A DNA stretch of 64,000 nt from an uncultured bacterium (GCA_965369865.1 CBDURU010000003.1:36560-100559); one strand, 5' to 3'. Positions 7,947-31,293 are shown, counted from the first letter of the stretch. The notes: generated by a model not told the origin, from the letters alone. Numbers and translations: made by a program.

Positions 7947-7950
7947 AGGC

Positions 7951-13256: not shown

Positions 13257-15680
13257 CTATTCCTGTTTTGACGATTGATCGTTTATTTTTATATTGATAC
13301 TTCGATGAGTGATGAAAATCCCGATTACTACCCAGGCAAAAATACTGATCATCGCCACTGACATGCCCTCTTTCAAGCCTGGCATGAGGTAGCGAAATTC
13401 TACCGTATGCTCGCCGCTCCCGATCTCAACAGCCATCGCAAAATTCCCGTGCACTTTCATTTCACGCGCTTCTCCATCGACCTCAACCGTCCATCCGGGC
13501 GCATATCCTTCATTGAGAACGAGAAGACCGGGAAAATCATAGCGGGTCTCAGCCGCAAAAAATCCCGGTTCATCCAGTCTTATTTCAGGCTGGGATAATA
13601 AATTAGGATCGTTGCTCCCGCTCTCAACATATGCTTCATCAGATGGAATGATAGATAGCCTTGTCGGCGGTTGTGCTGTATAACCCGGTTGGTCATACAA
13701 GTCATAAACAAAAAAATTATCGCTCTCACTTTTTGGAATAAGACCCTCGATGCTGGAATCAGACAGGACATATCTGATACCCATGTCAAATAGCCTTCTG
13801 TCGTAAAGATCAACCGGGGGAGTGAAAAAAGCGATTCCACGCCGCTTGATGACTGACTCCTCCTGGATATCCCTGAGCAGATCAAACCGGGATTTCGGGA
13901 CAAGGTTGTGGTATCCAAAAGCGTCGGGTATCCCGAAGAACGTCCCAAGGTTCGGGTAAAAGTTGTATGGCTGGTCTTCCAGCGATGCAGGATTTGCCGA
14001 ATTGTTCGCGTAGCGGATGATCCGTCCCCATTGGCCACCAGCCTCCGGACTGATCATTCTTTGCAGGCTTTGGATCGTCTCGGTTGCAGGTATTGGATTT
14101 CTTGAATAAGGGGATTTGAAATCTGACAGGACGAATGTTCCTGACATGATTGCCGAGTATATGAAACAGGCCGATAGAAGGGTGATTCCGAAGTAAATGT
14201 ATTTTTTTGAGATGGTATAGAACGCCGAGAAGATTATCACCGCTCCCGCAATTGTAAGGACATACGGATCGCCAGTTGGGATTAGCAAGCTACGGTCTGT
14301 AAGAAGAATGCCCGCGAGCGCAATTACAATTCCAATTAAAGCGGGAATGAGCGCGACAGAGTGCGTCACGCCAACCGGTTTATCGAGCGCGGCGATTTTT
14401 TTCCAGTGTTTCACTCCGATCGCAGAGAATATCAGAATAATGAATCCCAATATCTCCAGGGGCTGTGTCGGTAGGATAAAGATCGCTCTCGTTGGGATGC
14501 TTAGAAGGTTATTCAATGTCGGGTTAAGAGCAAAAGGTGTGATTATCAGCGCGATAATTGCAAGTGATCTCGGAAAATCAAGTTGTCGCCAGTTAACTAA
14601 TCCCAAAAGCGCAAAGGTAAAAGGGATAACCCCGACATATCCGCTGTAATGGGGGTAATAAAATCCAAGCCTGAGTGGGAGAATTGGCTGCAGAAGACGC
14701 TGGAAATGATTCTGCCATGGTTCGGTGAATTGAAGAGCGGTCGTGTATTCCGTCATCATTTGCTGAAACGATTGGAAAGCGATACGGTCGCTTAGTGCTG
14801 AAGCCATAAGGGTCGGGATGTTCTGCACCATGGAAATCCCGAGACCTAGAATGAACGGCCATACCAGAATTTTTAGTGATGCTTTCCATGATGGTCTAAT
14901 AACGCGATCGATCATCCTTCCTCGAATGAAAAACCATACTGCGGTGAAAAGCCCAAAATGCACCAAAAGCGTTGGATAGCCTGCAAGTAGAGGAACTGAC
15001 CAGCATAGAGCCATCCATAATCCTGCCCACGGGTTTTGATGTTTCAGCCATCTTTCATGGAAGAACCATATTCCCGGGAAAAAGGCCATCGTCATCGGCC
15101 AGGGCTGGTAGTACGGGGTGGGAAGAAGGGAGACCACGAGAAAACTAGCTGCTGCCCATGATGCTATACGGCATGCGAGCCATTCCTTCAGAAAAAGATA
15201 AAAGAAAATCGCCATGATCAGGGTGTGAAGAACGCCCGATGCACCGAGAATCATAAGAGGCGGGAATAACCACGCTATAAGGGCATAAACAGGGTAGTAC
15301 ACCGGAACGAGATGATTTTGAAGTAAAGGGACTCCGCTAAGACAGTACGGGTCCCAGGCAGGGATATTTCCTTTACGAAGCTCGTCGTGCGCGATTTTAT
15401 TCCACGGGCTATACATCAAAACCGCGTCGAAATTCGTATGAAGGATATTGGGATCATCATGCCCAGAGAAGCCAAGTTCGCTATTCCAGGGTTCCAGTCG
15501 CTCCCATGAGTCGGGCATAACGGGTTTACCCAGCAGGAGCGGATAGTAAAGAGCGAGTCCCAGAAGAATCAAGCCTAGGATTGGAGCCAGATCAGCCAGA
15601 GCAAACGCCCTTTGGATTCCGGTTGTCTCTTTAAAACCAGTATTGTCTTTCTGATCGGACATCCGGGATGATTTTATCAC
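13257..15680 (-). CDS. YfhO-like polytopic membrane protein, paralog 3
   Basis: 807 aa. Many TM helices. C-terminus …NEGYAPGWTVEVDGEAREMKVHGNFAMAVEIGSGEHTVEFRYLMP plus a TM, matching the other two paralogs. GTG at 15680 or ATG at 15662. Confidence 0.5.
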   Translation of the reverse strand: MIKSSRMSDQKDNTGFKETTGIQRAFALADLAPILGLILLGLALYYPLLLGKPVMPDSWERLEPWNSELGFSGHDDPNILHTNFDAVLMYSPWNKIAHDELRKGNIPAWDPYCLSGVPLLQNHLVPVYYPVYALIAWLFPPLMILGASGVLHTLIMAIFFYLFLKEWLACRIASWAAASFLVVSLLPTPYYQPWPMTMAFFPGIWFFHERWLKHQNPWAGLWMALCWSVPLLAGYPTLLVHFGLFTAVWFFIRGRMIDRVIRPSWKASLKILVWPFILGLGISMVQNIPTLMASALSDRIAFQSFQQMMTEYTTALQFTEPWQNHFQRLLQPILPLRLGFYYPHYSGYVGVIPFTFALLGLVNWRQLDFPRSLAIIALIITPFALNPTLNNLLSIPTRAIFILPTQPLEILGFIILIFSAIGVKHWKKIAALDKPVGVTHSVALIPALIGIVIALAGILLTDRSLLIPTGDPYVLTIAGAVIIFSAFYTISKKYIYFGITLLSACFIYSAIMSGTFVLSDFKSPYSRNPIPATETIQSLQRMISPEAGGQWGRIIRYANNSANPASLEDQPYNFYPNLGTFFGIPDAFGYHNLVPKSRFDLLRDIQEESVIKRRGIAFFTPPVDLYDRRLFDMGIRYVLSDSSIEGLIPKSESDNFFVYDLYDQPGYTAQPPTRLSIIPSDEAYVESGSNDPNLLSQPEIRLDEPGFFAAETRYDFPGLLVLNEGYAPGWTVEVDGEAREMKVHGNFAMAVEIGSGEHTVEFRYLMPGLKEGMSVAMISIFAWVVIGIFITHRSINIKINDQSSKQE

Positions 15681-15848
15681 TTATGGGTATCAGTTACACC
15701 CAAGTGCCGCCCGCAGTTCGCCGCAGGCGAGATGTGGATGTCCGGAATATTTCCTATTTTTCCGAATCACCCAAATCCTGCGCTACGCTCGTATCAAGGC
15801 GCCACAGGTCTATTTAATTCTCAAATCTACGCTTGTTTAAGCTACCTG

Positions 15849-16922
15849 TTATTCCAGTTCTTCCTGCTGTTTGTTTTTCTTTTCCCTCGACTTTTTTACC
15901 CGCGTTTCCGCACTCTCATACGCTTCCACGATCAGTTGGACGAGCGAATGGCGGACGATATCAGTCTCATCGAGATTTACCAGCGCGATCCCACCGATGT
16001 GCGACAGGATATTCAACGCGTGCGCGAGTCCGGAGGTCTCCCGTGTGCCGAGATCGACCTGGCTTGGGTCGCCGGTAATCACCATCCTGGATCGGGGGCC
16101 CATCCTGGTCAGGAACATTTTCATCTGGCCCGCGGTGGTGTTCTGCGCCTCATCGAGAATAATGTAGCTTTTATTTAATGTCCTTCCACGCATATACGCG
16201 AGCGGTGCGATCTCGATGACCTCCCTCTCAATCAGGCGACGGGTTTTTTCAACGCCAAGCATTTCGTAAAGGGCGTCGTAAAGCGGACGGAAGTACGGGT
16301 CGACCTTGTCGAGGAAAGTTCCCGGCAGATATCCAAGGCTCTCACCGGCTTCGACCGCGGGTCGGGTCAGGATAATTCGCTGGACCGTTCCCCTGCTCAG
16401 AGTATTAACCGCCATAGCGACCGCGAGGTATGTTTTTCCGGTACCGGCTGGTCCCGCGCAGAAAGTGATGGCGTTATCCTTCATCGACTGGACATAATTG
16501 GCCTGTCCTTCTGTCCGGGGACGGATTTTGAGCAATCCACCGTTGATAACAAGTCCATCGAACGCATGATCGTTTTTTTTCGCAGGCGCCTGTTCTTCCA
16601 GGCCATCATCGAGAGGAATCTCCGTCTCAACTTCCCTGCTTCGCTCCTGGTGGTAGAATCGCTCGATATCATCCTCCGACAATTCATCGCCGGCCTGTGC
16701 CCTTTTTACGAGCAGACCGAGGAGTTGCTGAACGAGGGCGACCTCATTAGAAGGCCCGGTGATCCTGACCGACGATCCGCGCGGGACAACCCGTGCAGGG
16801 GTATTCTGCTGGATCACCCTGAGATTACGGTCCGCAACACCGAGAACCTGTACCGCTTCGAGATCGTTCCTGAAATGGAAAGTCAGAGTTGTAACTTCAT
16901 CGTCCTTAAGACGTTTTGCCAA
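15849..16922 (-). CDS. phoH: PhoH-like ATPase (PhoH/YbeZ family)
   Basis: 357 aa. Walker A GPAGTGKTYLAVAMAV. Conserved PhoH core (…ILTRPAVEAGESLGYLPGTFLDKVDPYFRPLYDAL…ILDEAQNTT…ITGDPSQVDL). TTG start with a GGAGGA RBS. Confidence 0.9.
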   Translation of the reverse strand: MAKRLKDDEVTTLTFHFRNDLEAVQVLGVADRNLRVIQQNTPARVVPRGSSVRITGPSNEVALVQQLLGLLVKRAQAGDELSEDDIERFYHQERSREVETEIPLDDGLEEQAPAKKNDHAFDGLVINGGLLKIRPRTEGQANYVQSMKDNAITFCAGPAGTGKTYLAVAMAVNTLSRGTVQRIILTRPAVEAGESLGYLPGTFLDKVDPYFRPLYDALYEMLGVEKTRRLIEREVIEIAPLAYMRGRTLNKSYIILDEAQNTTAGQMKMFLTRMGPRSRMVITGDPSQVDLGTRETSGLAHALNILSHIGGIALVNLDETDIVRHSLVQLIVEAYESAETRVKKSREKKNKQQEELE

Positions 16923-17032: not shown

Positions 17033-20000
17033 TCAGTACAAATCGAAAACCTTGAGACCTCTTCCCCCGGTGCCAAGGTACAGGTAGCCGTCAAGTGTTA
17101 CCAGATCACTTGGCGCCCATGTCATACCATCATACAGGTAGCCAAGTTTGGCGGGACAATCGGGCGGCCAGATTGAACAAATTTCCGGAATTCGATAGAA
17201 GCCATACGCATACGCATAGTATCCATCGACATAAATTTCGCTCAGCCAGTTTACACCCGGAAGGGGCAGGGCGGCAACGTGCACGGGGACATCCGGATTG
17301 GTCAGGTCCGTAATTTGAAGCTCGCCACTAGTCATGATATACATTTTGGATCCATAAGAGGTCAGGTCATAATGAATGTCCAGCGAGTTAGAATATGAAC
17401 CAACATATGCAGGCGGCATCGGAGCGTCAGCGGTATAAATTTCTATGCTATTCTGCAAGGCATAATACATATTGGGGGAATAATACATGATGTCTCTGAC
17501 GGCCGAAGGAAAGGTGATCGAAGTTACATATACGGGTGCGGATGGAATAGCGACGGAATAAATTCTGACCGTTTTGGCCGGATCATTAATTGCGACATAA
17601 GCATGATCTCCCTGTAAAAGTATCTGATTGATATCATGTGTTTCAACGGTGTATGCCAGATCAGTGATTGCGAGCGGGTCAGTCGCGTCGTTCAGGCTCC
17701 AGTGCTTGCCGCCGGCGGTCATGAGTAAGTTCTGGTCCAGAGACATATCCCTCAGGACATCATTCACCCAGAATTCAGCGGCGACATATACATTGGCGGG
17801 GTTGGAAATATCAATGGTTTTAACAGCCTTATTGTAATCGACAACCAAGAGGTATCCATCTTTAATGACAAGTGATATGCAGTAATTAACGACTTTCTGC
17901 CGTGACAGTGAAGGAGATCCTGGCGGGTTGATGCTGAAAATTTCAAGACCCTGGCTGTTGGGAATGATGTAAGCATAGTCCCCAACCGCGGCTACATCCT
18001 TACCATCGGTCACCATCGGGACAGTGCTGTCGTATTGTGGATTATCCGGATCGGTCGCATCGCAGACCGAAAAGCCGGCGGGTCCATCTCCGATTGTCAC
18101 ATACGGCCAGGAAATATCAATACTCCTGGCGGTTCCCGGTACGTTAACGCTTCCTTTAGGAGTCAGGATATTCGTATTGAGGATGTGTGTATAGCCCTGA
18201 TGGACAATCGTGTCATAAACGGCGGTATAGATATACCCATCGTTGACAACAGTTTCCTGGATCACATTATTCGCAGGATAAGTGTGTGTCGCAAGTAATT
18301 GGGGGTTTAATGGATCTTCGATAAGGTATGAATAAAGTTCATTGTAGATCGTCATTAAGAGGGATGTTGCGGGTCCTTCAGGATCCATGAGATCCAGATC
18401 ATCACAACTGTAAGGTGCGACGAAGTTATGAAGTTCGATCGGATTCGTGGGATCTGAAGAGATGTCATAGAACAACAAGTAATAATCCCCCATAGGATTG
18501 TCGAACCACGATAAATACAGGTGGGTTGAATTCGAGCACATACTGTATAACAGGGACCAGGAATCAAAGGTGATAATATCAGGATAAGAAACCGGTGCTT
18601 CAGGAGTTGTCAGATCCAGCAAGGAAAGATCATTGTTGTCGCTGTAGTAAAGATACGGATAATTAAACGTGGCATAATCATTTATGGTGTAATCAAAAGC
18701 CTGCAGGAACAAGGGATTCGAAGGATTCGAGATATCGTAAATCCAAAGCCTGTCTCCCCCCATGATCGCGTAATTGTCATGAATCCAGATGAAGGTCGGC
18801 TCAAGAAATAATCCGTCCGGAGTGATATCTACCGGGTTATCCGGGGACGCGAAAGGCCCGGTCAGTTTCAATACATAAGGTGCGATCTGGGAAGGGTTAC
18901 TAGTGTAAACACGAATGAAATACTGCCCCGTTTCCATGCCTGGATCAGACAATGGGATGGTTGCAGAACCTCCAACGACATCATCTTCGCTTACAAGCGT
19001 ATGCGTGCTGTCATATAATCCCACCTTAGTCAGGGATACATCGCAGAATAGTTCAATTTTCGCATCGTAAGCATAACCGCCAGTGATCTGAAACTCGTAA
19101 AAATCCTTGTAATCATTCGGGAGACATACCTGGTCATATATTTCAGAATCGAAACTGACAGGAAAAGCTTCCATGAAGTCATTGTTAGCGTCGGGGTCAC
19201 AGGTAACCTCCGGGATATCGAGAATGAGTGTCTGCCAAGCAGCGACAGAAGTATCCGGGGCCGGATAGGTAAACCCCTGGTTGTAATCAGGTCCGCCCGC
19301 TGATTTTACTTTCACGGCAACAAGGACCTCCCCTGCCGAGGCGGGTAAAGCGGTGCCGGTGAGATCGGCAGTGTAAGATGCTTTCAGAGCGGTTTGTGAA
19401 TCGAAAATCGCACTAACTCCACCGGGGAACAAATCGGGCGAAAAAATCCTCACGCTCTCAACCTGTGCAGCGATGTCGCCCAGAGCCTGTCCCTGCCAGT
19501 CATGGACATTTAATTTCAATTGAAGGACGCCACCACCGACCCCATTATCAACATCATAGTAAAGGGTGTTGACCTTATCGACTAATACAAGATTGAAAGC
19601 TTCGGGTTGATTGGCTTCAATGGGAAAATCATCCGGAACCTCAAGCGGAGGATTAGGTGCCGGTAAGGCCCAGCAGGCATCGATTACATACGAGAATCGA
19701 AAATCGGGTGCAGGAAGCATCGGGAAGCGAACATTGTAGCGTCTTGTGTTAGCGGTCCCGGTGGTGAAAACACCCCTGCCCATATCGTTGTTCAGTGGTT
19801 CTAAAAAAACAGGCTGCAGACCTTCCAAATTATCAAGGATATCTGCGAAATACCGGTACGGGTTAACCGACGCGGTCAGTTCGGCACCGGGAGTATTTGC
19901 AAACTGGTTTTCGATGTACCCGAAAACACCGGATTGAGTAAATTCTGCAGGATTCCACCAGCGCGTGAACCCGTCGGCATTTTCAAGTTGGGTTTCATCG

Positions 20001-20440
20001 ACATCGGAGAAAAATAATGAACCGATCGGGAGAGTTCCCGGAGCCATTACGATGCCTTTAACATCAAAAATTGTGAACTCCGTTTCGGTGTCGAACGGGT
20101 GGGTGAGAGTAAAATCGACAACAAAAAGACCGTTTGGCGGGTCCGATTGCCCCGGCGGCAGAACGACAGACAGGCTGAAAGTGTCGATGAAGATTTTCGT
20201 CAGGTTGAAGTGGAAATCTGTAGACCTGTCCGGGATTGTATTAACCTGATTGGTCCCGGCCTTGATAACTATGTCGTACGAGCCCAGCATTTGATGGTTA
20301 TTCACATTACTGCTGGAATTTGTTAATCCTGAATCCTGGCCGGTGCTCACTGAGGGTGTTACCGGATTTTTCGAGCATCCCGGAGATGCAAACACGCCAG
20401 CCAGTAAAAAAATAATTAGAGTCAGGGCGATTCTGTTCAT
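17033..20440 (-). CDS. Giant surface lipoprotein, array copy 4 (most downstream on the minus strand). Architecture: conserved N-terminal module, PPC domain, LVIVD-like beta-propeller.
   Basis: 1135 aa. Signal peptide with Cys22 (…LAGVFASPGCS). The N-terminal ~380 aa is shared with the three upstream genes and with 47591..49537. PPC-like segment CDPDANNDF…DYKDFYEF…GQYFIRVYT…YVLKL. The C-terminal half has repeats such as GDYAYIIPNSQGLEIFSINP and DGYLYLGTGGRGLKVFDLY. GGAG RBS. Confidence 0.7.
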   Translation of the reverse strand: MNRIALTLIIFLLAGVFASPGCSKNPVTPSVSTGQDSGLTNSSSNVNNHQMLGSYDIVIKAGTNQVNTIPDRSTDFHFNLTKIFIDTFSLSVVLPPGQSDPPNGLFVVDFTLTHPFDTETEFTIFDVKGIVMAPGTLPIGSLFFSDVDETQLENADGFTRWWNPAEFTQSGVFGYIENQFANTPGAELTASVNPYRYFADILDNLEGLQPVFLEPLNNDMGRGVFTTGTANTRRYNVRFPMLPAPDFRFSYVIDACWALPAPNPPLEVPDDFPIEANQPEAFNLVLVDKVNTLYYDVDNGVGGGVLQLKLNVHDWQGQALGDIAAQVESVRIFSPDLFPGGVSAIFDSQTALKASYTADLTGTALPASAGEVLVAVKVKSAGGPDYNQGFTYPAPDTSVAAWQTLILDIPEVTCDPDANNDFMEAFPVSFDSEIYDQVCLPNDYKDFYEFQITGGYAYDAKIELFCDVSLTKVGLYDSTHTLVSEDDVVGGSATIPLSDPGMETGQYFIRVYTSNPSQIAPYVLKLTGPFASPDNPVDITPDGLFLEPTFIWIHDNYAIMGGDRLWIYDISNPSNPLFLQAFDYTINDYATFNYPYLYYSDNNDLSLLDLTTPEAPVSYPDIITFDSWSLLYSMCSNSTHLYLSWFDNPMGDYYLLFYDISSDPTNPIELHNFVAPYSCDDLDLMDPEGPATSLLMTIYNELYSYLIEDPLNPQLLATHTYPANNVIQETVVNDGYIYTAVYDTIVHQGYTHILNTNILTPKGSVNVPGTARSIDISWPYVTIGDGPAGFSVCDATDPDNPQYDSTVPMVTDGKDVAAVGDYAYIIPNSQGLEIFSINPPGSPSLSRQKVVNYCISLVIKDGYLLVVDYNKAVKTIDISNPANVYVAAEFWVNDVLRDMSLDQNLLMTAGGKHWSLNDATDPLAITDLAYTVETHDINQILLQGDHAYVAINDPAKTVRIYSVAIPSAPVYVTSITFPSAVRDIMYYSPNMYYALQNSIEIYTADAPMPPAYVGSYSNSLDIHYDLTSYGSKMYIMTSGELQITDLTNPDVPVHVAALPLPGVNWLSEIYVDGYYAYAYGFYRIPEICSIWPPDCPAKLGYLYDGMTWAPSDLVTLDGYLYLGTGGRGLKVFDLY
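18851..19207 (-). other. PPC (bacterial pre-peptidase C-terminal)-like domain inside array copy 4. Approximate boundaries, residues ~412-530.
   Basis: DANNDF…DxxDFYxF…(G)xYxxRVxxxxxxxxxYxL pattern characteristic of PPC domains. An equivalent segment occurs in the other three array members (e.g. CHGDANNDFADAF…DYRDFYFF…). Confidence 0.5.
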
Positions 20441-20501
20441 AACTACACTCCGCTAGTGAATTATTTTTATTCTGCCAATATAAATGGACTAATTGTTTAA
20501 C

Positions 20502-23500
20502 TCAATACAGGTCATAGATACTTAAACCAGTATCCCCGGAAGCCAGGTAAATAAGATCATCTACAATAACCATATCGGTTGTATAGTAACCATGATCTCC
20601 GAACAGTATTCCCAGGTTGACCGCTTCTTCCGGCGGCCACACATTACATAGATACGCAGGGGAAAGTCCACTTGCGTAAGCGAACTGCCCGTCAACCTCA
20701 ATTTCCATTAAATAGGAGGGTGGCCCCGATGTAAGCAGAACGGAATTTATGAACGTTGGATTGAGCATATTGCTCGCGTCGACAATCTCAATCCTGTCAA
20801 GCGCCGCAATATACATTATGTCATTTTGAACAATCGCCTTCGTTGGCACGTTGGATGGGGTGTAAGTAGCGACATGATTAGGCAGTGCGGGATTCAGAAG
20901 TGAGTATATCTCAAGGTTACCGCTGGGAATTATCATGTCATCCCCGTAAAAAGAAATACTTGCGGGATTTGTACCGGGGAGGGTGATTGTGTTGACCAGG
21001 ACAGGGGGATCGAACATGTTCAACTCGAAGATATGCAACGAGGCAAACCCGGCTTCCGTTGTTATGTAAAGATAATCATTGTAAATGTTCATGGTCCGGG
21101 TCGGGTTGGGAAGCGAACCGGAGGCGATCTGTGTAATTAAGGCGGGATTGCTGACATTAAGGAACTCCCAGCCATTAGTGCCTACCAGGGCGGCCATGCG
21201 TCCGTTATCATAAGCCAGGAAATTAATCTTTCCTAATGATGTCAGGTATTCGGTTTCGAGGAAAATATTTTCGGGATCGGAGATGTTTACAATTTTAATC
21301 GCATGGTAGCCAAATGAAAATTCAGCGGTATATAAGTAGTCTCCATCGATAAAAATCATACCAGCCTGGTTAAGGACTTCGAGCCGTCCCAGGTCCTGGG
21401 GTGAAACCGGATTGCTGACATTAAAAACCTGCATTCCCGCATCATAGGGAATAATGCAAAGAATATCTCCATTTACCGCAAGGTCAATGCCGATGGAAAC
21501 CAGGGGTACCGATGTAAGCAGGATTGGTGATCCGGGATTTGTCAAATCTATAGTGGCCAGGCCGCCAGTATGATCGGCAATGTATGCGTACGGCCATTCA
21601 GCGTCAATGCCACACGCTAATCCGGGAGTTGCGGTTTCTCCAAGTTCGCTGAAACCACCAATTAAATCGAACTCGAGAATGAACATGCTTTCTGTAATAT
21701 TCGGATTGGTGCCTGTGGCAATTACATATTTATCGCTGAGGGCAAAATCATAGATGGCCGCGGTTGAATGATTGTCCAGATATATAGTTGATGATGGGTT
21801 CTCAACATCAATAGCGGTAAAATTATTCTCACTCGCGCTTATGAGGATCGGTTTGGTGGCTTCGGGATACATGAGATCGAGTTGTCTGACATCTATGATC
21901 GGGCTTCCAAAGGAGCCTGCCTCAAAAGGGTAAAGAGGGTCGGTCGACCAGTTAAAGATTGTGTACTGTGTTGCTACCGGGTTATCGAAATCAGCCACGT
22001 ACAGGTGTGATGAATTCATGCAGATATCGCCGACGTCATACCCGAGGTAAGCAACGTTTTCGTGAAATACCGGGTTGGATTTATTGCTGACATCGATCAT
22101 GTTTATCTGGCCCAGCTCAGGCTCGGGGTAAGAAATGTAGTAAATGAAATTACCATAATGAGCCGATATGATTTTGGGGCCGAAAGAACCTCTTATTTTA
22201 AAAACCTGGACAGGGTTCGATGGAATTGTCATGTCGTAGATCCAAAAGAACCTGCTGTTCAATAAATATATGTAATCACCTTCCCACCAGATTTTGTATG
22301 GGTTGACATATAAGCCGCTGCCGGTAAGCACGACAGGATTGGGGGTCATATCGGTGGCAATGACATTAAAATCCAGTTCGTATGGGGCAAGTTCGGTAGG
22401 ATTGGATGTATAAACCCTGAGGTAATATATATCCGGCATCAGGTTGAGTGAATCGACATCAATAGAAGCAAGGCCGGCAGCTACAACGCTTTCAATAATA
22501 AGGCCTTGATCGGGATCGTAAAGCCCGAGTTTGGTGGGACCGGCATCGCAATGCAGATCCACATGACCCGACACTTCGAATCCGGATGGTATTTCAAAGA
22601 AATAGAAATCCCGGTAATCATCCGGGAGGCATACCTGGCCGTCGATCGTAGAACCGTAATTGATTTCAAATGCATCCGCGAAATCGTTATTCGCGTCGCC
22701 ATGGCAGTTAAGGTCGGGAATATCAAGAATCAGAGTTTGCCATGCGGCTAATGGTGCAGTGGGTGCAGGATATGACAGCCCCTGGTCGTATGCCGGTCCT
22801 CCGGACGAAACAACTTCGACAGCGAGTAAACATTCTCCGGCCTGCGCGGGATTTGCAATACCGGTAAGGTCGACCGTGTATCGCGCTTTGACAGGAGTCT
22901 GATCAAGATATGCCATTTCGATTCCACCGGGAAATAAATCGGGCGCATAGACCTTCACGCTGCCGACCTGCGACGCAATATCACCGCTGTCCTGACCCTG
23001 CCAGTCGTGGACATTCACCTGTAGTTTGAGGATCCCGGCTCCAGTCCCGGAATTACTGGAATAGTAGAGAGTGTCCGCTTTTTTTGCCAACGCGAGATGA
23101 AAAGCTTCTGGCTGGTTAGCTTGAATCGGGAAATCATCGGGCACAGCGGATGGTGGATTGGGATCGGGTATTGCCCAGCATCCGTCTATAACATAAGAAA
23201 ACCTGAAATCCGGAGACGGTAACATCTGGAATTTTACGATGTACCGGCGTGTATTGCTGCTGCCGGTTTTAAACACACCCCTCCCGTTGTTACTGGTAAG
23301 CGCCTCTGAATAAACAGGCTGCATACCGTCGGTCGGGTCGAGGATATCGGCGAAATATTTATACGGATTGATATTAGCAGTCAGCAGGCCGCCGGTTGTA
23401 TTTGTAAACAGGCCGTCCATGTAGCCGAAAATGCCCGGCTGGGTGAATTCTGTTGGATTCCACCATCGTGTGTACCCATCCGCATTGTCAACCCGGGTCT

Positions 23501-23945
23501 CAGAGGGTCCGGTAAACATCGCGGAGCCAATGTTGAGCGTCCCGGGCGTCATCACGATTCCCTTTACATCAAAAATAGTGTACTCAGTCTCGGTAGTGAA
23601 AGGGTGAGTAATCGTGAAATCAACGGCAAAGACCCCGTTAGGAGGATCGGACTCGCCTGGTATTAATGCGATAGACAGGTTTAGCGTATTTACAAAAATT
23701 TTCGTCAGGTTGAGATGGAGATCCGATGATCTATTGGGCAGAATTTCCGCTTCCATGCCGACCGGGTCCAAAGAAATATCATAGGAACCCAGGCACAGAT
23801 GGTTTAATTGATTGCCCTGTACCAGGTTTTGAGGCTCTCCCAGGATTAACCCGGGATCGGGTGTCGATGGATTTCCATGACAACCCTGGATTGCTACTAG
23901 AATGATCGTAAAAATTAGTACCAGCCACGGAAATTTCCGGCTCAT
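20502..23945 (-). CDS. Giant surface lipoprotein, array copy 3
   Basis: 1147 aa. Signal peptide plus Cys (…VAIQGCHGNP). Conserved N-terminal module (LGSYDISLDP…NLTKIFVNTLNLSIALIPGESDPPNGVFAVDFTITHPF…NADGYTRWWNPTEFTQPGIFGYMDG…), a PPC-like segment, and a divergent LVIVD-like C-terminal half ending DTGLSIYDLY. GAGGTG RBS. Confidence 0.7.
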   Translation of the reverse strand: MSRKFPWLVLIFTIILVAIQGCHGNPSTPDPGLILGEPQNLVQGNQLNHLCLGSYDISLDPVGMEAEILPNRSSDLHLNLTKIFVNTLNLSIALIPGESDPPNGVFAVDFTITHPFTTETEYTIFDVKGIVMTPGTLNIGSAMFTGPSETRVDNADGYTRWWNPTEFTQPGIFGYMDGLFTNTTGGLLTANINPYKYFADILDPTDGMQPVYSEALTSNNGRGVFKTGSSNTRRYIVKFQMLPSPDFRFSYVIDGCWAIPDPNPPSAVPDDFPIQANQPEAFHLALAKKADTLYYSSNSGTGAGILKLQVNVHDWQGQDSGDIASQVGSVKVYAPDLFPGGIEMAYLDQTPVKARYTVDLTGIANPAQAGECLLAVEVVSSGGPAYDQGLSYPAPTAPLAAWQTLILDIPDLNCHGDANNDFADAFEINYGSTIDGQVCLPDDYRDFYFFEIPSGFEVSGHVDLHCDAGPTKLGLYDPDQGLIIESVVAAGLASIDVDSLNLMPDIYYLRVYTSNPTELAPYELDFNVIATDMTPNPVVLTGSGLYVNPYKIWWEGDYIYLLNSRFFWIYDMTIPSNPVQVFKIRGSFGPKIISAHYGNFIYYISYPEPELGQINMIDVSNKSNPVFHENVAYLGYDVGDICMNSSHLYVADFDNPVATQYTIFNWSTDPLYPFEAGSFGSPIIDVRQLDLMYPEATKPILISASENNFTAIDVENPSSTIYLDNHSTAAIYDFALSDKYVIATGTNPNITESMFILEFDLIGGFSELGETATPGLACGIDAEWPYAYIADHTGGLATIDLTNPGSPILLTSVPLVSIGIDLAVNGDILCIIPYDAGMQVFNVSNPVSPQDLGRLEVLNQAGMIFIDGDYLYTAEFSFGYHAIKIVNISDPENIFLETEYLTSLGKINFLAYDNGRMAALVGTNGWEFLNVSNPALITQIASGSLPNPTRTMNIYNDYLYITTEAGFASLHIFELNMFDPPVLVNTITLPGTNPASISFYGDDMIIPSGNLEIYSLLNPALPNHVATYTPSNVPTKAIVQNDIMYIAALDRIEIVDASNMLNPTFINSVLLTSGPPSYLMEIEVDGQFAYASGLSPAYLCNVWPPEEAVNLGILFGDHGYYTTDMVIVDDLIYLASGDTGLSIYDLY

Positions 23946-23996
23946 GATTCACCTCGGTACTCCGGTAATTTATTTGTGCTAATGATATTTATCCGA

Positions 23997-26900
23997 CTAG
24001 TACAGATCGTAAATCCTCAGACCGGAACCTAAGTGCATGACATATAAAATCCCGTCTTCAACAAGGAGATTCAGAATAAACCCATAATTATTAGGACCGA
24101 ATGGCTCACTGTAGACGGCAGGCGTTTCGGGCGGCCACAAATTTACAATTACCGGATTATGTCCCATGTCAGAAACATAGGCGAACTGGTGTTCTACAGC
24201 CATAAATTGCATATTGGGTGCATATGGTAATCCGGTGTACCAAATAGCAACAGGTTGCCCCGAACCATCGAGTTCTACCGTTTCAAAGTAATCGGTATTG
24301 CAGACATAAAGGTAATCGTTCTGTATCGCGATATCCCGCACGGTTGCTGTCGAGGTGAAATCGCCAACATATACCGGGATCAGGTTTGATGTGATATCAA
24401 CAATTTTCACATCATCGAGCGCGTACGCATACAGGTAGTCTAAATCGGTTGACAGGGTTAACCCATGAAGTTCAGAAGTCCATGATGGATCAGGGACAGG
24501 GATCACACCAGGAAAAGTAGCCAGGTCGTAAACCTTGATTGTGCCGTTCGATAAGGTGGCATAAGCAGCCCAGTATGTGACTGCGACTGATTGCACGTAC
24601 GAGGGAAAAGTCTCTGAATACGCGAGTACCGGGTTGTACAGGTCTGTGCACTCGTACAGCGAGAATTTTTGATCGAGTGTTCCGACAGCCAGAATATTAT
24701 GTGCCCCCAGGTACAGTGCCATGCACATTGGTGAATCATCAAGCAAAACTTCCCCTTCTATGGTTGGGTTAGCGGGATCGGTCAAATCAAGGATTTTAAT
24801 AGCGTTATAGGATCCCCCTGATTCAATGAAATACCCTGTATCCCACCTGATCCTTCCATCAACAGGAATGTTAAGGCAAAGGACCCTGGCTGTTTCGGTC
24901 AGGAGAATCGTGTCTGATGCGTCATAAATTGAAAAACCGGCGTGTTCAGGGATATTCAGTAATTTATCCTGGTCGATCAGAATACTACATGATTCCGATA
25001 CAGTGGGAACTGTGCTGTTGATTGCCAGCGCTGAGAGGTTTGAAAAATCGACCACTGTAATTCCTATATTGTCAGCGATATATGCAGTATTTACCTTGGC
25101 GTCGATATTGTAACCGTACCCGGGGATAGGCAGTACATCCTTTGGAGAGAAGCCCAGCAGGTCGAGGTATGTATAGGATGAGATATAACCATCGGGAACC
25201 CCGTCAATATGTGTTTTCAAAATCTCGTTACCTACAATTGCTATATCAAGATTATACGTACCAAGCGCCGCAGGATGTGTGGCTTTTAATACTGGCAAAA
25301 CAGGATTTTCGACGTTGTATGCTCTCATGTCCTGACTTGTCATAACGATCAGGGCGGTTACGGGACCATCTGTATCGTATATGCCAAGCTTTAAAACGTT
25401 GTGCTGGCAATTAAAGTGGTTAATTTCCTGCAGATCGAGCGGGTCGGTGTAATCGTAAATATATATCCATGAACCCACCCCATCATCGAAAGCGATAAAC
25501 ATATACTCTGAATCAATCGTAATAAATTCGATTTGGCCTGGCAGTGACAGGATGTTCTCATGGAGAACCGGGCTGGATGGATTGCTGTAATCAACCATGT
25601 TAAGTATTGCAGGATTTTCAGTCCATCCTCCCCAGTAGTAAACCCTTCCATCGTATTCCGCAGGGGTCGCCCCCACCTGATCGTAGATTCTGGACAGAAA
25701 AACAGGATTGTAGAGATCGCTGGTGTCATATGCCCATGAACCCCTGGGTCCGGTCAGGATTGCAGTATCACCATGTGTTGTCAGCCAGCTTGCATCAAGG
25801 TCAAGGTTGTTTGGAGTAATGTCAACAGGATTTATTGGGGTGATATTTACCGTTTCAAGGTCCAAATTCAACTGGTATAAAAATGGATTCGGCTGAGATG
25901 ATTCTGTAACCTCAAGGTAATACCAACCGGGATCGGGCTTCCACCCGACAAGTTCTAATTTCACAACTCCATTGTTAGGGGTGTCTCCATCAAGAAGGTT
26001 TAAGTCCTGATCCCACAGAATCAACTTGGAAGTGGGCACATCGGAATATAAATAGACCCAGCCGTCGATATGGGTACCGGGTAGAATTTGAAACATGTAA
26101 AAATCGGAACTGTCGACAGAACTGCACAAGGTTCCAATCACCGTGTCCTGGAACGAAACCAGCTCCGCTTCAAGATGTGAATTGTTCGCATCCCCGACGC
26201 ATTCAGGATCGGTTATATCAACGGTAATGACCTGGTAGGCTGAGATATCAGCCGAGGGGGCGGGTGCCGTGCCCTGCTGGTAACTCGGTCCACCTTTGGA
26301 ACCAACCCTTGCGACAACCTGTGCCTGACCGGCATGTGTCGGAACAGCCAGGGAATATAAATCAGAAGTGAATCTGGCTTTGAAGTCATTTTGATCGAGG
26401 AAGGTTGCAGTGACACCGGTGCCCATTAAATCCGGAGAGAAAATCCGGACAGCATCAATCTGGTTCTCAAAATTTCCCGCCATCTGTCCCTGCCAGTCAT
26501 GGACATTTATCTGGAGTTTAAGTATTCCACCCCCGGTAGCGGTCTCAATGTCATAGTAGAGAGTGTTGATTTTTTCAGCCAGTGCAACATGATATGCTTC
26601 AGGCTGGTTCGCCTCGATCGGGAAATCGCTTGGCACGTCATCAGGCGGGTTCGGAACCGGGAGATCCCAGGAACCATCAATTACAAACGCAAACTTAAAA
26701 TTGGGTGTAGGCGTCATCTGGAACAAAACCTCGTATCTCCTGGTGACGAAGCTTCCCGGAGTAAAAATACCTCTGCCCTGGCTGCTGGCGAGATGTTCCA
26801 AGTAGACAAGGTTCATTGGGTCCTCAGGGCCGAGAATATCGGCAAAATATTTATATGGGTTAACCGTCGCTGTGAGCTGTCCACTTTCAGCATTAGTGAA

Positions 26901-27431
26901 CAGCCCATCCGTGTAACCGAAAATACCCGCCTTGGTGAATTCAGTCGGGTTCCACCACCGGGTATAACCATCAGCATTCAACACCTGGGTTTCATTGGTA
27001 TCCGAGAACATCGTTGCTCCGACCGCGAGTGACCCAGGGACCATTACGATGCCTTTAACATCGAATATGCTGAACTGGATCTCAGTTGTGAATGGATGTG
27101 TGAGTGTAAAGTCCACAACAAACAATCCGTTTGGGGGGTCCGACGCACCCTGGTCGAGTACGACTTCCAGGTTCATGGTGTCCAAAAAGATTTTTGTAAG
27201 GTTCAGATGCAGCTCACCGATCCGAAGCGGGATTGCTTCGATTGACATATCCAATGGATTGATCTCGATATCATAGGCGCCAAGATTGATGCGATTACCA
27301 GTGCTTGATTGATCTTTTAAAGACCCTGCAGGATCCCCGGTTGAAGGACTTGCAGGATTGCCCTGGCAGCCAAGTGAAACTATTAGCAAAAGAATTACTA
27401 CCAGTGAGAAAAATGTTCGTTGCTGATACAT
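23997..27431 (-). CDS. Giant surface lipoprotein, array copy 2
   Basis: ORF-track start is 27446. The first Met codon sits inside the AAGGAGG RBS, so the start is more likely the Met at 27431 (MYQQRTFFSLVVILLLIVSLGCQGNP). Conserved N-terminal module, PPC-like segment (CVGDANNSHLEAE…DSSDFYMFQ…GWYYLEV), divergent propeller-like C-terminus ending GSGLRIYDLY. Confidence 0.7.
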   Translation of the reverse strand: MYQQRTFFSLVVILLLIVSLGCQGNPASPSTGDPAGSLKDQSSTGNRINLGAYDIEINPLDMSIEAIPLRIGELHLNLTKIFLDTMNLEVVLDQGASDPPNGLFVVDFTLTHPFTTEIQFSIFDVKGIVMVPGSLAVGATMFSDTNETQVLNADGYTRWWNPTEFTKAGIFGYTDGLFTNAESGQLTATVNPYKYFADILGPEDPMNLVYLEHLASSQGRGIFTPGSFVTRRYEVLFQMTPTPNFKFAFVIDGSWDLPVPNPPDDVPSDFPIEANQPEAYHVALAEKINTLYYDIETATGGGILKLQINVHDWQGQMAGNFENQIDAVRIFSPDLMGTGVTATFLDQNDFKARFTSDLYSLAVPTHAGQAQVVARVGSKGGPSYQQGTAPAPSADISAYQVITVDITDPECVGDANNSHLEAELVSFQDTVIGTLCSSVDSSDFYMFQILPGTHIDGWVYLYSDVPTSKLILWDQDLNLLDGDTPNNGVVKLELVGWKPDPGWYYLEVTESSQPNPFLYQLNLDLETVNITPINPVDITPNNLDLDASWLTTHGDTAILTGPRGSWAYDTSDLYNPVFLSRIYDQVGATPAEYDGRVYYWGGWTENPAILNMVDYSNPSSPVLHENILSLPGQIEFITIDSEYMFIAFDDGVGSWIYIYDYTDPLDLQEINHFNCQHNVLKLGIYDTDGPVTALIVMTSQDMRAYNVENPVLPVLKATHPAALGTYNLDIAIVGNEILKTHIDGVPDGYISSYTYLDLLGFSPKDVLPIPGYGYNIDAKVNTAYIADNIGITVVDFSNLSALAINSTVPTVSESCSILIDQDKLLNIPEHAGFSIYDASDTILLTETARVLCLNIPVDGRIRWDTGYFIESGGSYNAIKILDLTDPANPTIEGEVLLDDSPMCMALYLGAHNILAVGTLDQKFSLYECTDLYNPVLAYSETFPSYVQSVAVTYWAAYATLSNGTIKVYDLATFPGVIPVPDPSWTSELHGLTLSTDLDYLYAYALDDVKIVDITSNLIPVYVGDFTSTATVRDIAIQNDYLYVCNTDYFETVELDGSGQPVAIWYTGLPYAPNMQFMAVEHQFAYVSDMGHNPVIVNLWPPETPAVYSEPFGPNNYGFILNLLVEDGILYVMHLGSGLRIYDLY

Positions 27432-27461
27432 GTATTCCTCCTTCAAATTTCAAATTATTAA

Positions 27462-30400
27462 TCAGTACAGGTCCCAGATTCTTAATCCGAAACCTGAAGC
27501 ACGTTCGTAGTAATAGCCGTTATTAATTAAAACCTGGTTTGGTTTTACCTCGAAATCGGTACTATATAATGGGCCTATAACTGTTGGTGCATCGGGAGGC
27601 CAAATTCTCATTACCGTTGGTGGAGTCCACCAGTAGGGTTGACAAATAGCGAACTGGTTATCGACCGCAAGGTACTCTCCGTGTGGAGCATCAGGATGAG
27701 TTTCATGGGAAAGGTATACAGGTGATTGCGGAATGGAAATATCCGCAATTTCGAGAGTGTCACTGGTAGCTATGATCAGGTAGTCACCATACACCTCGAT
27801 ATTTTTAGCGTAGCTCAGAGGTACGTATGTTACCTGGTAAATCGGGTTGAGTGGATTAACAATCGAGTAAACAAGGATTTCACCACCGGCAAGCACATAC
27901 ATTATGTCACCTTTGAATTTAATACTCATTGGGATGCTGGTAGTAGCCAAACCGGTTTGATATGTTAACAATGTCCAAACCGACAAATCCCATACACTGA
28001 TCTGTGGTACGTTATTACCGACATATAATGCGTCCCCATTTAAGGCAAGGCAGGAAACATCGCTGGCGGCTGCGTACGGTCCATCCACCGTCATGGACCA
28101 AGGGTCGGGGCAATCAATTGCCAAGAGGAAAGGACCGCTCGTGGCGACTATCAGTCGATCCCCGTCTACTGCAATCCTTGACGGGTCATAATCGATTCTC
28201 TGCACCATGGTTAAAGCCGCATTAGCAGGATTGCCAATATTAAACACTTTAATTGCGTGGTATAGATTGCTGGATTCGATGGTATACAGGTAACTGCCGC
28301 TTATGACCATATCTTTGGGACTGGCCAGTCCGACGACACTCCCGGAACCGGTAACACTAAAGGGGTCGCCAATATCATAAGTGATCACCCCTGCCCTTCT
28401 ACACGCAGTGTAAAGCGTTCCATTCTCAAAGACTATATCACCAATATTTATTGGCAGGGGAAACGAGAGATTACCCCAAAATAATGGGAGATCCGGATTC
28501 GTAACATCAATAATCGAAATAGTTTCATCGCTGTTTAGACACAATGCGTAATTCCCATCTGTCTCTACAATGTTGGTTTCCTGGAACAGCAGGATGTTAC
28601 CGCCAGCGGTTATACCTCCAGTCTCAATTTTTAATGAACTGAAGTAATATTGCCAGGTAGAAGTGGATTGGCGGAGGACGAAGACGTAATTATCCCTGGT
28701 ACAGATGTCGATTATGTCCATATTCGTCCATGTGAAGACATCCGGTTTCGGGATCGAACTTTTGTCAGTGACATTGAAGAGATCAAGCCTTGCATTGTCA
28801 TACAAAACCGCAAGCCAGTAATCAGGTCCGACGCTATCGTTCACGAAATCAAGTTGATCGGGTTGACCGTTGATGGCAAGTTTGTGGATAAGCTCGGGTA
28901 CTTCTGGATTGTTGAAAATATAGTATATATCGATCGCGAAACCGGGGCTCGAATTGTAAGCTACGTAAAGGTAATCCGTTTCCCTCGCTATACAGTATAC
29001 GGCGGTTGTGTAATGCAATACATCAGGATACAGGACCTCATTTGTCGGGTCGGTGATATCGTACATTTCAATATTTGTATCACCTGGGCTTAATTCATGG
29101 ACAGAATAAATTTCGGTTATGCTGAAAGCCGGGTGTTCACTGTTGTAGATTTCAAAAAAGTTAAGGAATTCTGGTTGCAGTTTGTCTGTATGGTCGTAGA
29201 TCCAAACGCCGCCTTCAGTTTCTGTAAACACGAGGTCACCGGCAACAGCAATTTGTTGCGGGTAAAAAAACAGATCTTCGGGAGTCACATTAACCGGGTT
29301 ATCGGGAGTTACATTCGTAAGATAAATATCCGGTTCGATCATATACAGGAATGCCTGGCCTGATGTCTGGGTCAGCACCCGAACATAATATTCACCCGGC
29401 ATAATTCCCAGTAAAAATAGATCAATCACCGCGTATCCGCCTGATACAGCTTCCTCGTATATCAGAGATTCAGTATCGTCGTAAAGGCTGAAAGTAGTCG
29501 GTTCAGCATCACAGAAAAGTGTCAGGTCGCCATATACATCGCTACCAAGCGGCAGCGACAACAGGTAAAAGTCCTTGTAATCACCGGGCGCACATAACTG
29601 ATCGATTGTCGGATTCTCGAGGTCGAGAAGTAATGCCTCGCTGAAATCGTTATTTGTATCAGCCGAACACTCCGGGTCGGGAATGTCCAGGATCAATGTT
29701 TCCCATGCAGCGACCGAATTATCAGGTGCCGGATTGCCGGTTCCCTGGTCGTAATTCGGACCGCCTGCCGATGTCGCCTTCACGGCCAGAAGAGTTTCTC
29801 CGGAATGTGTTGGCGCGGCGATTCCAGTCAGATCGGCTGTATACCTTGCCTTGATCTCGAGTTCGTCCATGAACAATGCATCTGCTCCGCCTGAGAAAAG
29901 GTCCGGAGAATATATCCTTACGCCGTCAATTTCCGCCGCGATCGCGGCCGCATTCTGCCCCTGCCAGTCATGAACATTCACCTGCAGGCGAAGGACACCA
30001 CCGCCTGTACCCGATTCACTGTCATAATAAAGTGAATTGACTTTATCAGCGAGTACTAAGTCATATGCTTCAGGCTGGTTCGCCTCGATTGGAAAATCAT
30101 CAGGAACCGCATCTGGCGGATTCGGGACTGGTATATCCCAGCAGCCATTGATCACGTAACCGAATAATATGGTCGTAGCAGGTGCACCCGGAAAACGGAG
30201 GTTGTATCTCCTCGTGTTGCTGGCTCCATCTGTGAAAACCCCCCTGCCCATATCGTTATCAAGTGGTTCATAATAGACCGCGCTTAAAGGGTCTTCGGCG
30301 CCAAGGATATCCGCGAAATATTTATACGGGTTCACAGTCGCCGTAAGCTGGCCGGCGGTAGTATTAGTAAACAAGCCGTCCGTATATCCGAATATGCCCG

Positions 30401-30908
30401 GCTGGGTGAATTCTGTTGGATTCCACCATCGAGTATACCCGTCGGCGTTTTCGAGACGTGTTTCACCCGCATCCGCAAATAGCAGGGGTCCGATATTCAA
30501 TGTTCCGGGGGTCAAAACAATTCCCTTCACATCAAATATTGAGAATTCATTCTGTTCATCTAACGGGTGGGTCAATGTGAAATCCAGAACGAACAGCCCG
30601 TTCGGAGGATCGGACAGGCCGGGGATAACCACAATGTCAAGGCCCATCATATTTACGAAAATTTTAGTCAGGTTAAGGTGGAGATCGCTTGACCTCAGCG
30701 GCAGGATTTCGACAGTCGAATCCCGGGTGTTGAGTTCAACCAGGTACGATCCAAGGCTGTGGTGGGACCTGACATCAGACTGTGATTCCCTTGACGTTAA
30801 ATCGGATTGCTGCTGGATATCCGGCGATGCCGGGTGTCCCTGGCATCCGATCAGCACGATTATGCTAAAAAGAACCAGAATTATCAGGGGATTTTGCGAA
30901 CGATACAT
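27462..30908 (-). CDS. Giant surface lipoprotein, array copy 1 (first gene of the array)
   Basis: ORF-track start is 30950. I prefer the Met at 30908 (MYRSQNPLIILVLFSIIVLIGCQGHP) because a strong AGGAGG lies 6 nt upstream. Same module order as the other copies, C-terminal …SGFGLRIWDLY. A ~385-bp untranslated leader lies upstream. Confidence 0.7.
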   Translation of the reverse strand: MYRSQNPLIILVLFSIIVLIGCQGHPASPDIQQQSDLTSRESQSDVRSHHSLGSYLVELNTRDSTVEILPLRSSDLHLNLTKIFVNMMGLDIVVIPGLSDPPNGLFVLDFTLTHPLDEQNEFSIFDVKGIVLTPGTLNIGPLLFADAGETRLENADGYTRWWNPTEFTQPGIFGYTDGLFTNTTAGQLTATVNPYKYFADILGAEDPLSAVYYEPLDNDMGRGVFTDGASNTRRYNLRFPGAPATTILFGYVINGCWDIPVPNPPDAVPDDFPIEANQPEAYDLVLADKVNSLYYDSESGTGGGVLRLQVNVHDWQGQNAAAIAAEIDGVRIYSPDLFSGGADALFMDELEIKARYTADLTGIAAPTHSGETLLAVKATSAGGPNYDQGTGNPAPDNSVAAWETLILDIPDPECSADTNNDFSEALLLDLENPTIDQLCAPGDYKDFYLLSLPLGSDVYGDLTLFCDAEPTTFSLYDDTESLIYEEAVSGGYAVIDLFLLGIMPGEYYVRVLTQTSGQAFLYMIEPDIYLTNVTPDNPVNVTPEDLFFYPQQIAVAGDLVFTETEGGVWIYDHTDKLQPEFLNFFEIYNSEHPAFSITEIYSVHELSPGDTNIEMYDITDPTNEVLYPDVLHYTTAVYCIARETDYLYVAYNSSPGFAIDIYYIFNNPEVPELIHKLAINGQPDQLDFVNDSVGPDYWLAVLYDNARLDLFNVTDKSSIPKPDVFTWTNMDIIDICTRDNYVFVLRQSTSTWQYYFSSLKIETGGITAGGNILLFQETNIVETDGNYALCLNSDETISIIDVTNPDLPLFWGNLSFPLPINIGDIVFENGTLYTACRRAGVITYDIGDPFSVTGSGSVVGLASPKDMVISGSYLYTIESSNLYHAIKVFNIGNPANAALTMVQRIDYDPSRIAVDGDRLIVATSGPFLLAIDCPDPWSMTVDGPYAAASDVSCLALNGDALYVGNNVPQISVWDLSVWTLLTYQTGLATTSIPMSIKFKGDIMYVLAGGEILVYSIVNPLNPIYQVTYVPLSYAKNIEVYGDYLIIATSDTLEIADISIPQSPVYLSHETHPDAPHGEYLAVDNQFAICQPYWWTPPTVMRIWPPDAPTVIGPLYSTDFEVKPNQVLINNGYYYERASGFGLRIWDLY

Positions 30909-31293
30909 TTTATGCCTCCTAATCCGGAACATCTCAGTTCGGATAGACATTAGTTGGATCTAACAATTTTTCCCGAGGATTAAAACCGTAAAGCTTGATA
31001 AAATCAGGGGGTCCTGGCTCGTCATATCGCAATAGCCCGTTGATATGATCCTCCATGAAACCATATTTCATTGTATTGAAAGAAAGTTTCAATACATTAT
31101 GAAGCTTTAAGTCACCAGTAGTCAATTGAAATATTGATATATGGAAAATTCCTGTCGTGTCCCGTTCAGGGATTAGAAATGGCCTTGCGGGGTATTCGCC
31201 TTCGCTGTGTTGTAATTTATACTTGCATTTTAAGACCGTTATGTATTATTATGCATAACGACTTGTACGGATTGTGACCCGATTAATTAAGGA

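Follow-up and report, generated by a model that had tools for sequence, protein, structure and literature searches.

In the Mycoplasma Vsp/Vlp and Borrelia Vmp/vls systems, clustered variable surface lipoproteins have conserved 5′ ends and divergent exposed parts, and recombine at their 5′ ends. In TpsA/CdiA, Rhs and polymorphic toxins, a constant N-terminal trafficking module precedes exchangeable C-terminal domains. The first description of LVIVD repeats came from cell-surface proteins of archaea (Adindla et al. 2004, PMC2447325). Here we analyse a 64,000-nucleotide (nt) stretch of DNA from an uncultured bacterium (GCA_965369865.1, CBDURU010000003.1:36560-100559; hereafter the window), which carries a tandem array of four genes for large paralogous lipoproteins with features of all three. 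Each protein combines a conserved N-terminal module, referred to below as the N-module, with a PPC-type domain and a pair of LVIVD propellers. On balance, we consider it probable that the N-module and the PPC domain together form a constant, strongly constrained lipid-anchored base carrying a diversified double-propeller head, and that the array encodes four binding proteins made in parallel from ancient paralogues.

The array consists of four co-oriented open reading frames (ORFs) on the minus strand, here named G1 to G4 by order of transcription. They encode 1135-1162 amino acids (aa) each and are separated by gaps of 15 (G1/G2), 51 (G2/G3) and 61 nt (G3/G4), in agreement with a first-pass annotation of the window. 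All four ORFs are intact, each with its own start and lipobox. Two relatives were used for comparison: E, represented by Logan contigs of run ERR10503156 with 91-95% DNA identity in the flanks, and C, the cold-seep metagenome-assembled genome (MAG) CSMAG_1386 (L007, DAOVJF01), with ~87-88% protein identity. G1 (27462-30950; 1162 aa) opens with an ATG at 30950 that in relative E is followed by an in-frame stop codon, and its start is therefore probably the second ATG, at 30932, as judged from comparison with orthologues. G2 (23997-27446) has 1149 aa from the listed TTG and 1144 aa from ATG 27431 (MYQQRTFF). Because this ATG sits behind GGAGG and is the start used in the orthologues, the TTG is doubtful and ATG 27431 is probably the true start. 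G3 (20502-23945) and G4 (17033-20440) encode 1147 and 1135 aa, respectively. Shine-Dalgarno-like sequences precede G2, G3 and G4, with none evident before G1; together with the 15-61-nt gaps, these suggest that the four genes probably form one transcription unit and are expressed in parallel. Consensus scans yielded no excess of terminators over shuffled sequence, with zero in the intergenic gaps, and no enrichment of sigma-70 promoters relative to shuffles, and there were zero Rfam or tRNA matches in the window. Base composition is unremarkable, and no exact match to the G1 protein is on record in public assemblies. We note that long antisense ORFs lie opposite the N-module part of G2 (26499-27032, plus strand, 177 aa) and of G1 (30394-30963, plus strand, 189 aa), and that these are probably a by-product of codon composition.

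Domain mapping bore out the architecture proposed at first pass, namely a lipoprotein signal, a conserved module (then put at ~380 aa), a PPC domain and an LVIVD propeller. Each protein begins with a signal peptide and a lipobox Cys, followed by a Gly/Ser/Pro tether of ~30 aa, the N-module of ~360 aa, the PPC-type domain and two seven-bladed LVIVD propellers. In G1, the lipobox Cys is aa 36 (30843-30845), the N-module covers aa 67-424 (29679-30752), the PPC-type domain aa 428-546 (29313-29669) and the double LVIVD propeller aa 555-1162 (27465-29288). The same parts of G3 are Cys 22 (23880-23882), aa 53-410 (22716-23789), aa 414-532 (22350-22706) and aa 540-1147 (20505-22328). They lie at 27366-27368, 26211-27281, 25845-26201 and 24000-25820 in G2, and at 20375-20377, 19211-20284, 18851-19201 and 17036-18826 in G4. 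The lipobox Cys is invariant in 66 aligned sequences, where it ends the hydrophobic N-terminus and is followed by the Gly/Ser/Pro-rich tether, and a simple pattern of a hydrophobic stretch followed by [GAS..]C matched 108 of 120 homologues; the -3/-2 positions are atypical in G3 (IQGC) and G4 (SPGC). The G1-G4 proteins are thus predicted to be lipid-anchored and to be located in the envelope or at the cell surface.

The N-module, which spans ~aa 53-410 (G3 numbering), had zero matches in Pfam at E<=10 (N-terminal 560 aa, all four genes), in NCBIfam at E<=1 and, by profile, among PDB sequences at E<=10, which bears out the earlier remark that this architecture could not be assigned to a characterised family. 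In the AlphaFold2 prediction, the second half of the N-module (~aa 280-410) is a confident beta-sandwich. The Pfam PPC model likewise has no match in the N-terminal 560 aa, even at E<=10. The beta-sandwich of the PPC-type domain nevertheless superposes on solved PPC or collagen-binding domains of the ColG s3b type. Its sole sequence match is to ColG chains (phmmer E 4e-4), with which its NND and DDxRDxY motifs align; we take these residues to be the Ca-binding residues of the ColG domain. Across the 66 sequences, D417, D443 and D446 are invariant, and N419 and N420 nearly so.

The propellers (aa 540-1147 in G3) are predicted by AlphaFold2 as all-beta, with ~56 strands and a predicted local distance difference test (pLDDT) score >90. 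In Foldseek, the predicted structure matched proteins with two seven-bladed propellers in tandem (Utp21, 4nsx; DDB1; E 1e-20 to 1e-16). The Pfam LVIVD family (PF08309; gathering threshold 20.2 bits) scores above its cutoff in G3 (43.2 bits) and G4 (29.2 bits) and just below it in G2 (19.3 bits) and G1 (18.3 bits), and most homologues have a precomputed PF08309 match. The choice-of-anchor B model TIGR04312 reached 26 bits in G3 only (aa 913-978) against an NCBIfam cutoff of 100, which rules out membership. Nearly all family members end in ...G[LI]RI[YFW]DLY, which we read as the last propeller strand, a C-terminal sorting domain being absent.

Related proteins are numerous. A search with G3 returned 350 full-length relatives, nearly all of 1135-1160 aa and all unnamed. 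Among GTDB contigs, with one genome per species, there were 399 genomic matches, and the best 80 of these 399 lie in ten MAGs labelled ‘Planctomycetota bacterium’ or ‘bacterium’. Within the searches made, the family is limited to about ten MAGs. CSMAG_1386, the closest MAG, is placed in p__4484-113, without lower ranks, by the GTDB call in the supplement of a cold-seep catalogue (PMC10491686); the labels of this MAG conflict, its NCBI title being ‘Planctomycetota bacterium’. Counting only the loci fetched, one MAG has at least 26 N-module genes; several MAGs contain co-oriented arrays with 3 to 7 genes or more. The family, which we take to be specific to the lineage of 4484-113, appears to be among the largest gene families of that candidate phylum, with at least tens of copies per genome.

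The N-module extends well beyond proteins with this architecture. An N-module profile recovered 1647 representatives of 50% identity clusters, 869 of them at E<=1e-30. The matched proteins are 576-1874 aa long, and the module always occupies aa ~45-415. Among the domains that follow it are PQQ/BamB-like propellers, HExxH metzincin-like domains, a beta-helix, immunoglobulin (Ig)-like repeats and an anthrax protective antigen (PA)-like domain, which suggests that enzyme and pore-former cargos may ride on the same base. In other proteins, LVIVD repeats are combined with an N-module that is very divergent. A fifth, distant superfamily member is encoded in the window itself, 17 kb from the array (47591-49537, plus strand). 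It is a 648-aa lipoprotein whose N-module (aa ~45-420) matches that of the array at 27-33% identity by tblastn (E down to 7e-35), and whose C-terminus of ~230 aa is unrelated and has no Pfam match. Elsewhere, we observed two tandem genes in MAG CAZSPL01 (L064, 3082-5067 and 5743-7713) with the N-module before HExxH metzincin-like domains, and a 1874-aa protein (P0210) with the N-module before an anthrax protective-antigen-like Binary_toxB domain.

Selection differs along the protein. The ratio of nonsynonymous to synonymous substitution rates (dN/dS), taken between orthologues, amounts to 0.14-0.18 for the N-module, 0.12-0.41 for the PPC domain and 0.27-0.44 for the propellers; flanking genes give 0.08-0.27. 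All four genes are functional and under purifying selection, and evolution of the heads is two to three times as fast as that of the base.

The four copies resemble each other in the same graded manner. Alignment columns 100-400 show 50-70% protein identity between copies, and the C-terminal half shows 15-35%, as expected from the earlier description of conserved N-terminal and divergent C-terminal halves, and the alignment of the four ORFs is far beyond chance. The first-pass annotation had attributed this likeness to gene conversion, citing identical stretches of 30-45 nt. The 32-mer that it pointed to is real, being exact at 23437 and 30400, and forms part of a 38-nt match between G1 (approximately 30400-30437) and G3 (23437-23474) that encodes the motif RWWNPTEFTQPG, where the N-module is most conserved. 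However, this is the sole exact tract of at least 30 nt, so that the plural and the range of lengths were overstated. The next exact tracts measure 27 nt (G1/G2) and 26 nt (G2/G4), and three of the six pairs have no tract >17 nt. In codon-resampling simulations (n=500), the three tracts had P<0.002 (38 nt), P=0.004 (27 nt) and P=0.012 (26 nt). They lie on the most conserved motifs (RWWNPTEFTQPG, ANQPEAY and HDWQGQ) and make up <1% of gene length. Furthermore, they are old: each also occurs in the orthologues of two further genomes, the 38-nt tract in the G1-type orthologues of both relatives.

Synonymous sites and the wider family point in the same direction. Among columns where two copies have the same amino acid, 0.38-0.44 of the codons are identical in every one of the six pairs, with no difference between the N-module and the C-terminal half; fully randomised synonymous codons with this codon usage would give 0.38. 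Synonymous sites are thus saturated, and the N-terminal half is conserved at the protein level only. In addition, each window copy stands only 3rd to 97th when the 142-147 full-length homologues of another copy are ranked; many homologues in other genomes are thus closer to a given copy than its own neighbours are, and there is therefore no concerted evolution. The duplications predate much of the spread of the family, and the paralogues are ancient. What keeps the copies alike is selection on the protein, not ongoing gene conversion, and the proposal that the array is kept similar by gene conversion is not upheld.

Recombination between paralogues did become apparent when the array was compared with that of the relatives. 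The window gene order and all junctions recur in both E and C. The G1 orthologue in CSMAG_1386 is ~87% identical over its full length, the G2 orthologues (P0050/P0048) are 91% identical, and the G4 orthologue (P0003) is 94% identical and is followed by PhoH as in the window. With genes of the window, E and C prefixed W_, E_ and C_, W_G1 and C_G1 are ~90% identical throughout. The second gene of E (E_g2), however, reaches 93-98% identity to W_G1 only beyond aligned nt ~800-830; before this point it is 40-80% identical to W_G1 and G2-like, with another signal peptide (Fisher p 6e-116). Similarly, C_G2 has at least 90% identity to W_G2 beyond nt ~318, whereas its first 300 nt are ~50% identical and resemble E_g2 (p 2e-69). 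E also has an extra first gene (P0035) with a G1-type promoter-proximal end and signal peptide and a body ~52% identical to G1. E thus counts five genes, whereas G2 directly follows G1 in the window and in C. The search of metagenome assemblies suggested at first pass found the array at a copy number of 5 in E versus 4 in the window.

These mosaic breakpoints fall inside the N-module of orthologues, and paralogues, or their alleles, have therefore recombined there since the genomes diverged. Recombination swaps 5′ ends relative to heads and changes copy number. The stretch of G1 between 150 and 800 nt is orthologous to neither E gene, so that several events are superimposed, whether the copy-number difference began as a deletion in the window lineage or as an insertion in E. 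The gene-conversion proposal thus holds in a weaker form: paralogues recombine in the conserved 5′ part, as seen in the mosaic orthologues and in the difference between four and five copies, but the N-terminal halves are not homogenised in the window.

In the arrangement that we consider probable, the N-module base would be a generic anchoring, presentation or export module. This same base is under strong purifying selection and is reused before quite different C-terminal domains in the same genomes. The propeller pair would be a diversified ligand-binding head, with the four copies providing four binding specificities. These would be made in parallel, probably from one transcription unit, and would not constitute a switching repertoire. 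Old duplications were followed by divergence, and occasional homologous recombination in the conserved 5′ part reshuffles signal-peptide/N-module segments relative to the heads and alters copy number between close relatives.

Several points weigh against this arrangement. Surface exposure, ligand binding and co-transcription are all predictions from sequence. The dN/dS of the propellers is <1, so that positive diversifying selection is not demonstrated. AlphaFold2 assigns a pLDDT of only 30-60 to the most conserved first ~230 aa of the N-module, including the RWWNPxEF motif, and the five-gene state of E is known from a single metagenomic contig. Furthermore, the conserved Asp, Asn, Glu, Arg and Trp residues of the N-module would equally suit an enzyme or a lectin, and the existence of a subtilase-LVIVD lipoprotein of similar length would allow the N-module to be the catalytic part.

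These last two points bear on the possibility, to which we assign a low but appreciable probability, that the array proteins are envelope-tethered enzymes. The N-module would then be a new catalytic domain, a polymer hydrolase or lyase, and the PPC domain and propellers would be substrate-binding appendages; secreted peptidases carry PPC domains as appendages. A set of polar and aromatic residues is kept across the whole N-module superfamily (D126, N154, D156, R160, W161, N163, E166, K196, R222, R233, N277, E280 and D314), and the N-module has the lowest dN/dS of the protein. In addition, a 1196-aa lipoprotein of a related MAG from Lac Pavin (L014, 6102-9692, minus strand), similar in length to the array proteins, has a subtilase S8 domain N-terminal to its LVIVD repeats. 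On the other hand, the N-module matches no enzyme family in sequence or fold. H77 and H114, which are invariant in the close family, are not kept in the wider superfamily, where conservation covers Asp, Asn, Glu, Arg, Lys, Trp and Phe but not histidines. Finally, the N-module also precedes catalytic or pore-forming-like domains (HExxH, anthrax-PA-like) in other proteins, which fits a carrier better than a second enzyme.

The subtilase-LVIVD lipoprotein begins with a post-Cys tail, CSGKNNPAIPD, similar to that of the array proteins. A tail of the form C-[GS]-...-P-x-x-P is loosely common to these putative exported lipoproteins and is absent from the solute-binding lipoprotein encoded at 31294, and it could be a sorting cue. 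A strict C-x-G-N-P-x-x-P motif was considered as a sorting signal and set aside as speculation, since it occurs in about half of the close family and is loose elsewhere. As a tentative extension of the constant-base arrangement, which we regard as doubtful, the N-module and its Cys-Gly/Ser-...-P-x-x-P tether might form a lineage-specific lipoprotein ‘handle’, read by a machinery that would export the cargo domains to the cell surface or dock them there. The DNA of this handle would act as a homology platform for reshuffling heads and signal peptides, and the family would be the main recombination-diversified surface proteome of 4484-113.

We consider it improbable that the array is a surface-variation system, as first proposed, in which gene conversion would keep the anchors alike and move variable exposed domains for antigenic or phase variation. 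The constant N-terminal and variable C-terminal parts, the 38-, 27- and 26-nt tracts that exceed the codon-resampling expectation, and the paralogue recombination evident from the mosaic 5′ ends and the copy-number difference would all suit such a system. However, synonymous saturation is equal in the conserved and divergent halves, concerted evolution is lacking, the exact tracts are old and common to orthologues, and the four genes are complete, each with a start and lipobox, with dN/dS <1 throughout. Moreover, the recombination that we observe swaps 5′ ends and not the variable heads. The hallmarks of switching looked for were likewise missing: silent, partial or truncated cassettes and tandem repeats were absent from the array and its surroundings, the array itself contained no homopolymer or dinucleotide tracts, and neither the upstream region nor the intergenic gaps were flanked by inverted or invertible repeats. 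The only two inverted-repeat pairs found were weak (75-80% complementary, with arms 2-8 kb apart). An ‘adhesin-like’ role for the proteins, which was part of the same proposal, would be plausible.

It is more improbable still that the proteins are structural cell-coat (S-layer-like) subunits, with the paralogues as alternative subunits. They are large, beta-rich and apparently envelope-anchored, belong to a highly expanded family and carry the repeats first seen in archaeal cell-surface proteins, all of which would be compatible with a coat. Yet they match no SLH domain, nor any Pfam or NCBIfam family other than LVIVD, and tens of divergent copies per genome, on a base common to peptidase-like and toxin-like heads, are unlike a lattice subunit. 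That the array is an assembly artefact of collapsed or duplicated repeats, a caveat raised at first pass, we regard as practically dismissed: beyond the general risk that repeated genes pose in metagenome assemblies nothing speaks for it, whereas the DNA identity of the copies (~60% in the most similar part, ~40% elsewhere) is too low to confuse an assembler, the gene order and every junction recur in independent assemblies of other samples (L007, L073, L075 and L076), and the four intact ORFs are under purifying selection.

The array is set in an ordinary chromosomal neighbourhood. A PhoH gene (15849-16922, minus strand) follows it on the same strand, as had been stated. The three YfhO-like genes reported nearby are also present (13257-15680, minus strand; 5499-7946 and 7951-10440, plus strand), with a transketolase gene among them; they had been placed upstream, but lie downstream of the array by direction of transcription, two of them on the plus strand. 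Upstream and divergent are genes for a solute-binding protein (31294), an ABC transporter and molybdenum-cofactor synthesis. In the loci of other genomes compared, YfhO and PhoH adjoin the array only in the closest relative, and the neighbours of family members elsewhere are varied (tRNA synthetase, FeoB, ferredoxin, peptidases). PhoH and YfhO are not conserved partners of the family, and no conserved partner gene (transporter, PhoH or YfhO) was found beside family members across the loci of other genomes. We also observed that the closest relative is without the third YfhO-like gene (13257-15680, minus strand): where the window has 13095-15839, L075 has a 1.2-kb segment (7646-8821) with a 292-aa ORF, an indel or replacement adjoining PhoH. 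In a more distant Lac Pavin MAG (L005, 2512-6176), a family member lies beside a MoeA gene whose product is 64% identical to that of the window. Because a family member again adjoins MoeA there, the position of the array next to molybdenum-cofactor genes seems to be old.

The N-module is a clear target for the definition of a new domain family and for structure determination, as AlphaFold2 leaves its core unmodelled, and annotation would gain a definable new domain and a fixed architecture. If the reading of a constant base with exchangeable heads is true, the family illustrates how sediment bacteria of this kind form their contact with substrates or with other cells, and provides a natural example of recombination at a conserved module that shuffles heads and alters copy number. 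If the N-module is in addition a handle of the kind outlined above, it would represent a novel kind of sorting or anchoring domain, with a role comparable to that of two-partner secretion (TPS) domains or of the C-terminal domains of the type IX secretion system (T9SS).

How, then, does the array compare with the systems already described? With choice-of-anchor B proteins (TIGR04312) it shares only a weak local match in the G3 propeller. Compared with the collagen-binding domains of ColG and ColH, the array PPC domain lies inside the protein instead of following a peptidase at the C-terminus, contains two conserved paired Cys residues (C414 and C439) and is not scored by the Pfam PPC model, and collagen binding is not expected in this habitat. 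The likeness to LVIVD-repeat surface proteins (PF08309) consists of LVIVD repeats in the C-terminal ~600 aa, predicted beta-propellers and a likewise predicted extracytoplasmic location. The array proteins differ in having exactly two fused seven-bladed propellers behind an N-module and PPC domain in a lipoprotein, and in repeats so diverged that Pfam finds one unit per protein.

At the level of organisation, the array resembles the Vsp/Vlp and Vmp/vls systems in its clustered lipoprotein paralogues, conserved 5′ ends, divergent parts and 5′ recombination. It differs from them in having no silent cassettes, expression-site switching, invertible promoters or repeat slippage, and in paralogues that are anciently diverged, complete and under purifying selection. 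The presence of one conserved N-terminal module before many unrelated C-terminal domains in the same genomes recalls TpsA/CdiA, Rhs and polymorphic toxins. Here, however, the anchor is a lipobox Cys, the N-module is unrelated in sequence, the heads are mostly binding domains and not toxins, and there is no conserved partner transporter or immunity gene near the N-module loci. Clustered families of paralogous lipoproteins with constant and variable parts, LVIVD propellers and PPC domains are thus all already known. What is new is the N-module, which is large, widespread and missing from every library searched; the fixed architecture of N-module, PPC domain and double LVIVD propeller; and the expansion of this family in a nearly undescribed candidate phylum, 4484-113, which is barely mentioned in the literature searched, together with direct evidence of recombination at the conserved module.

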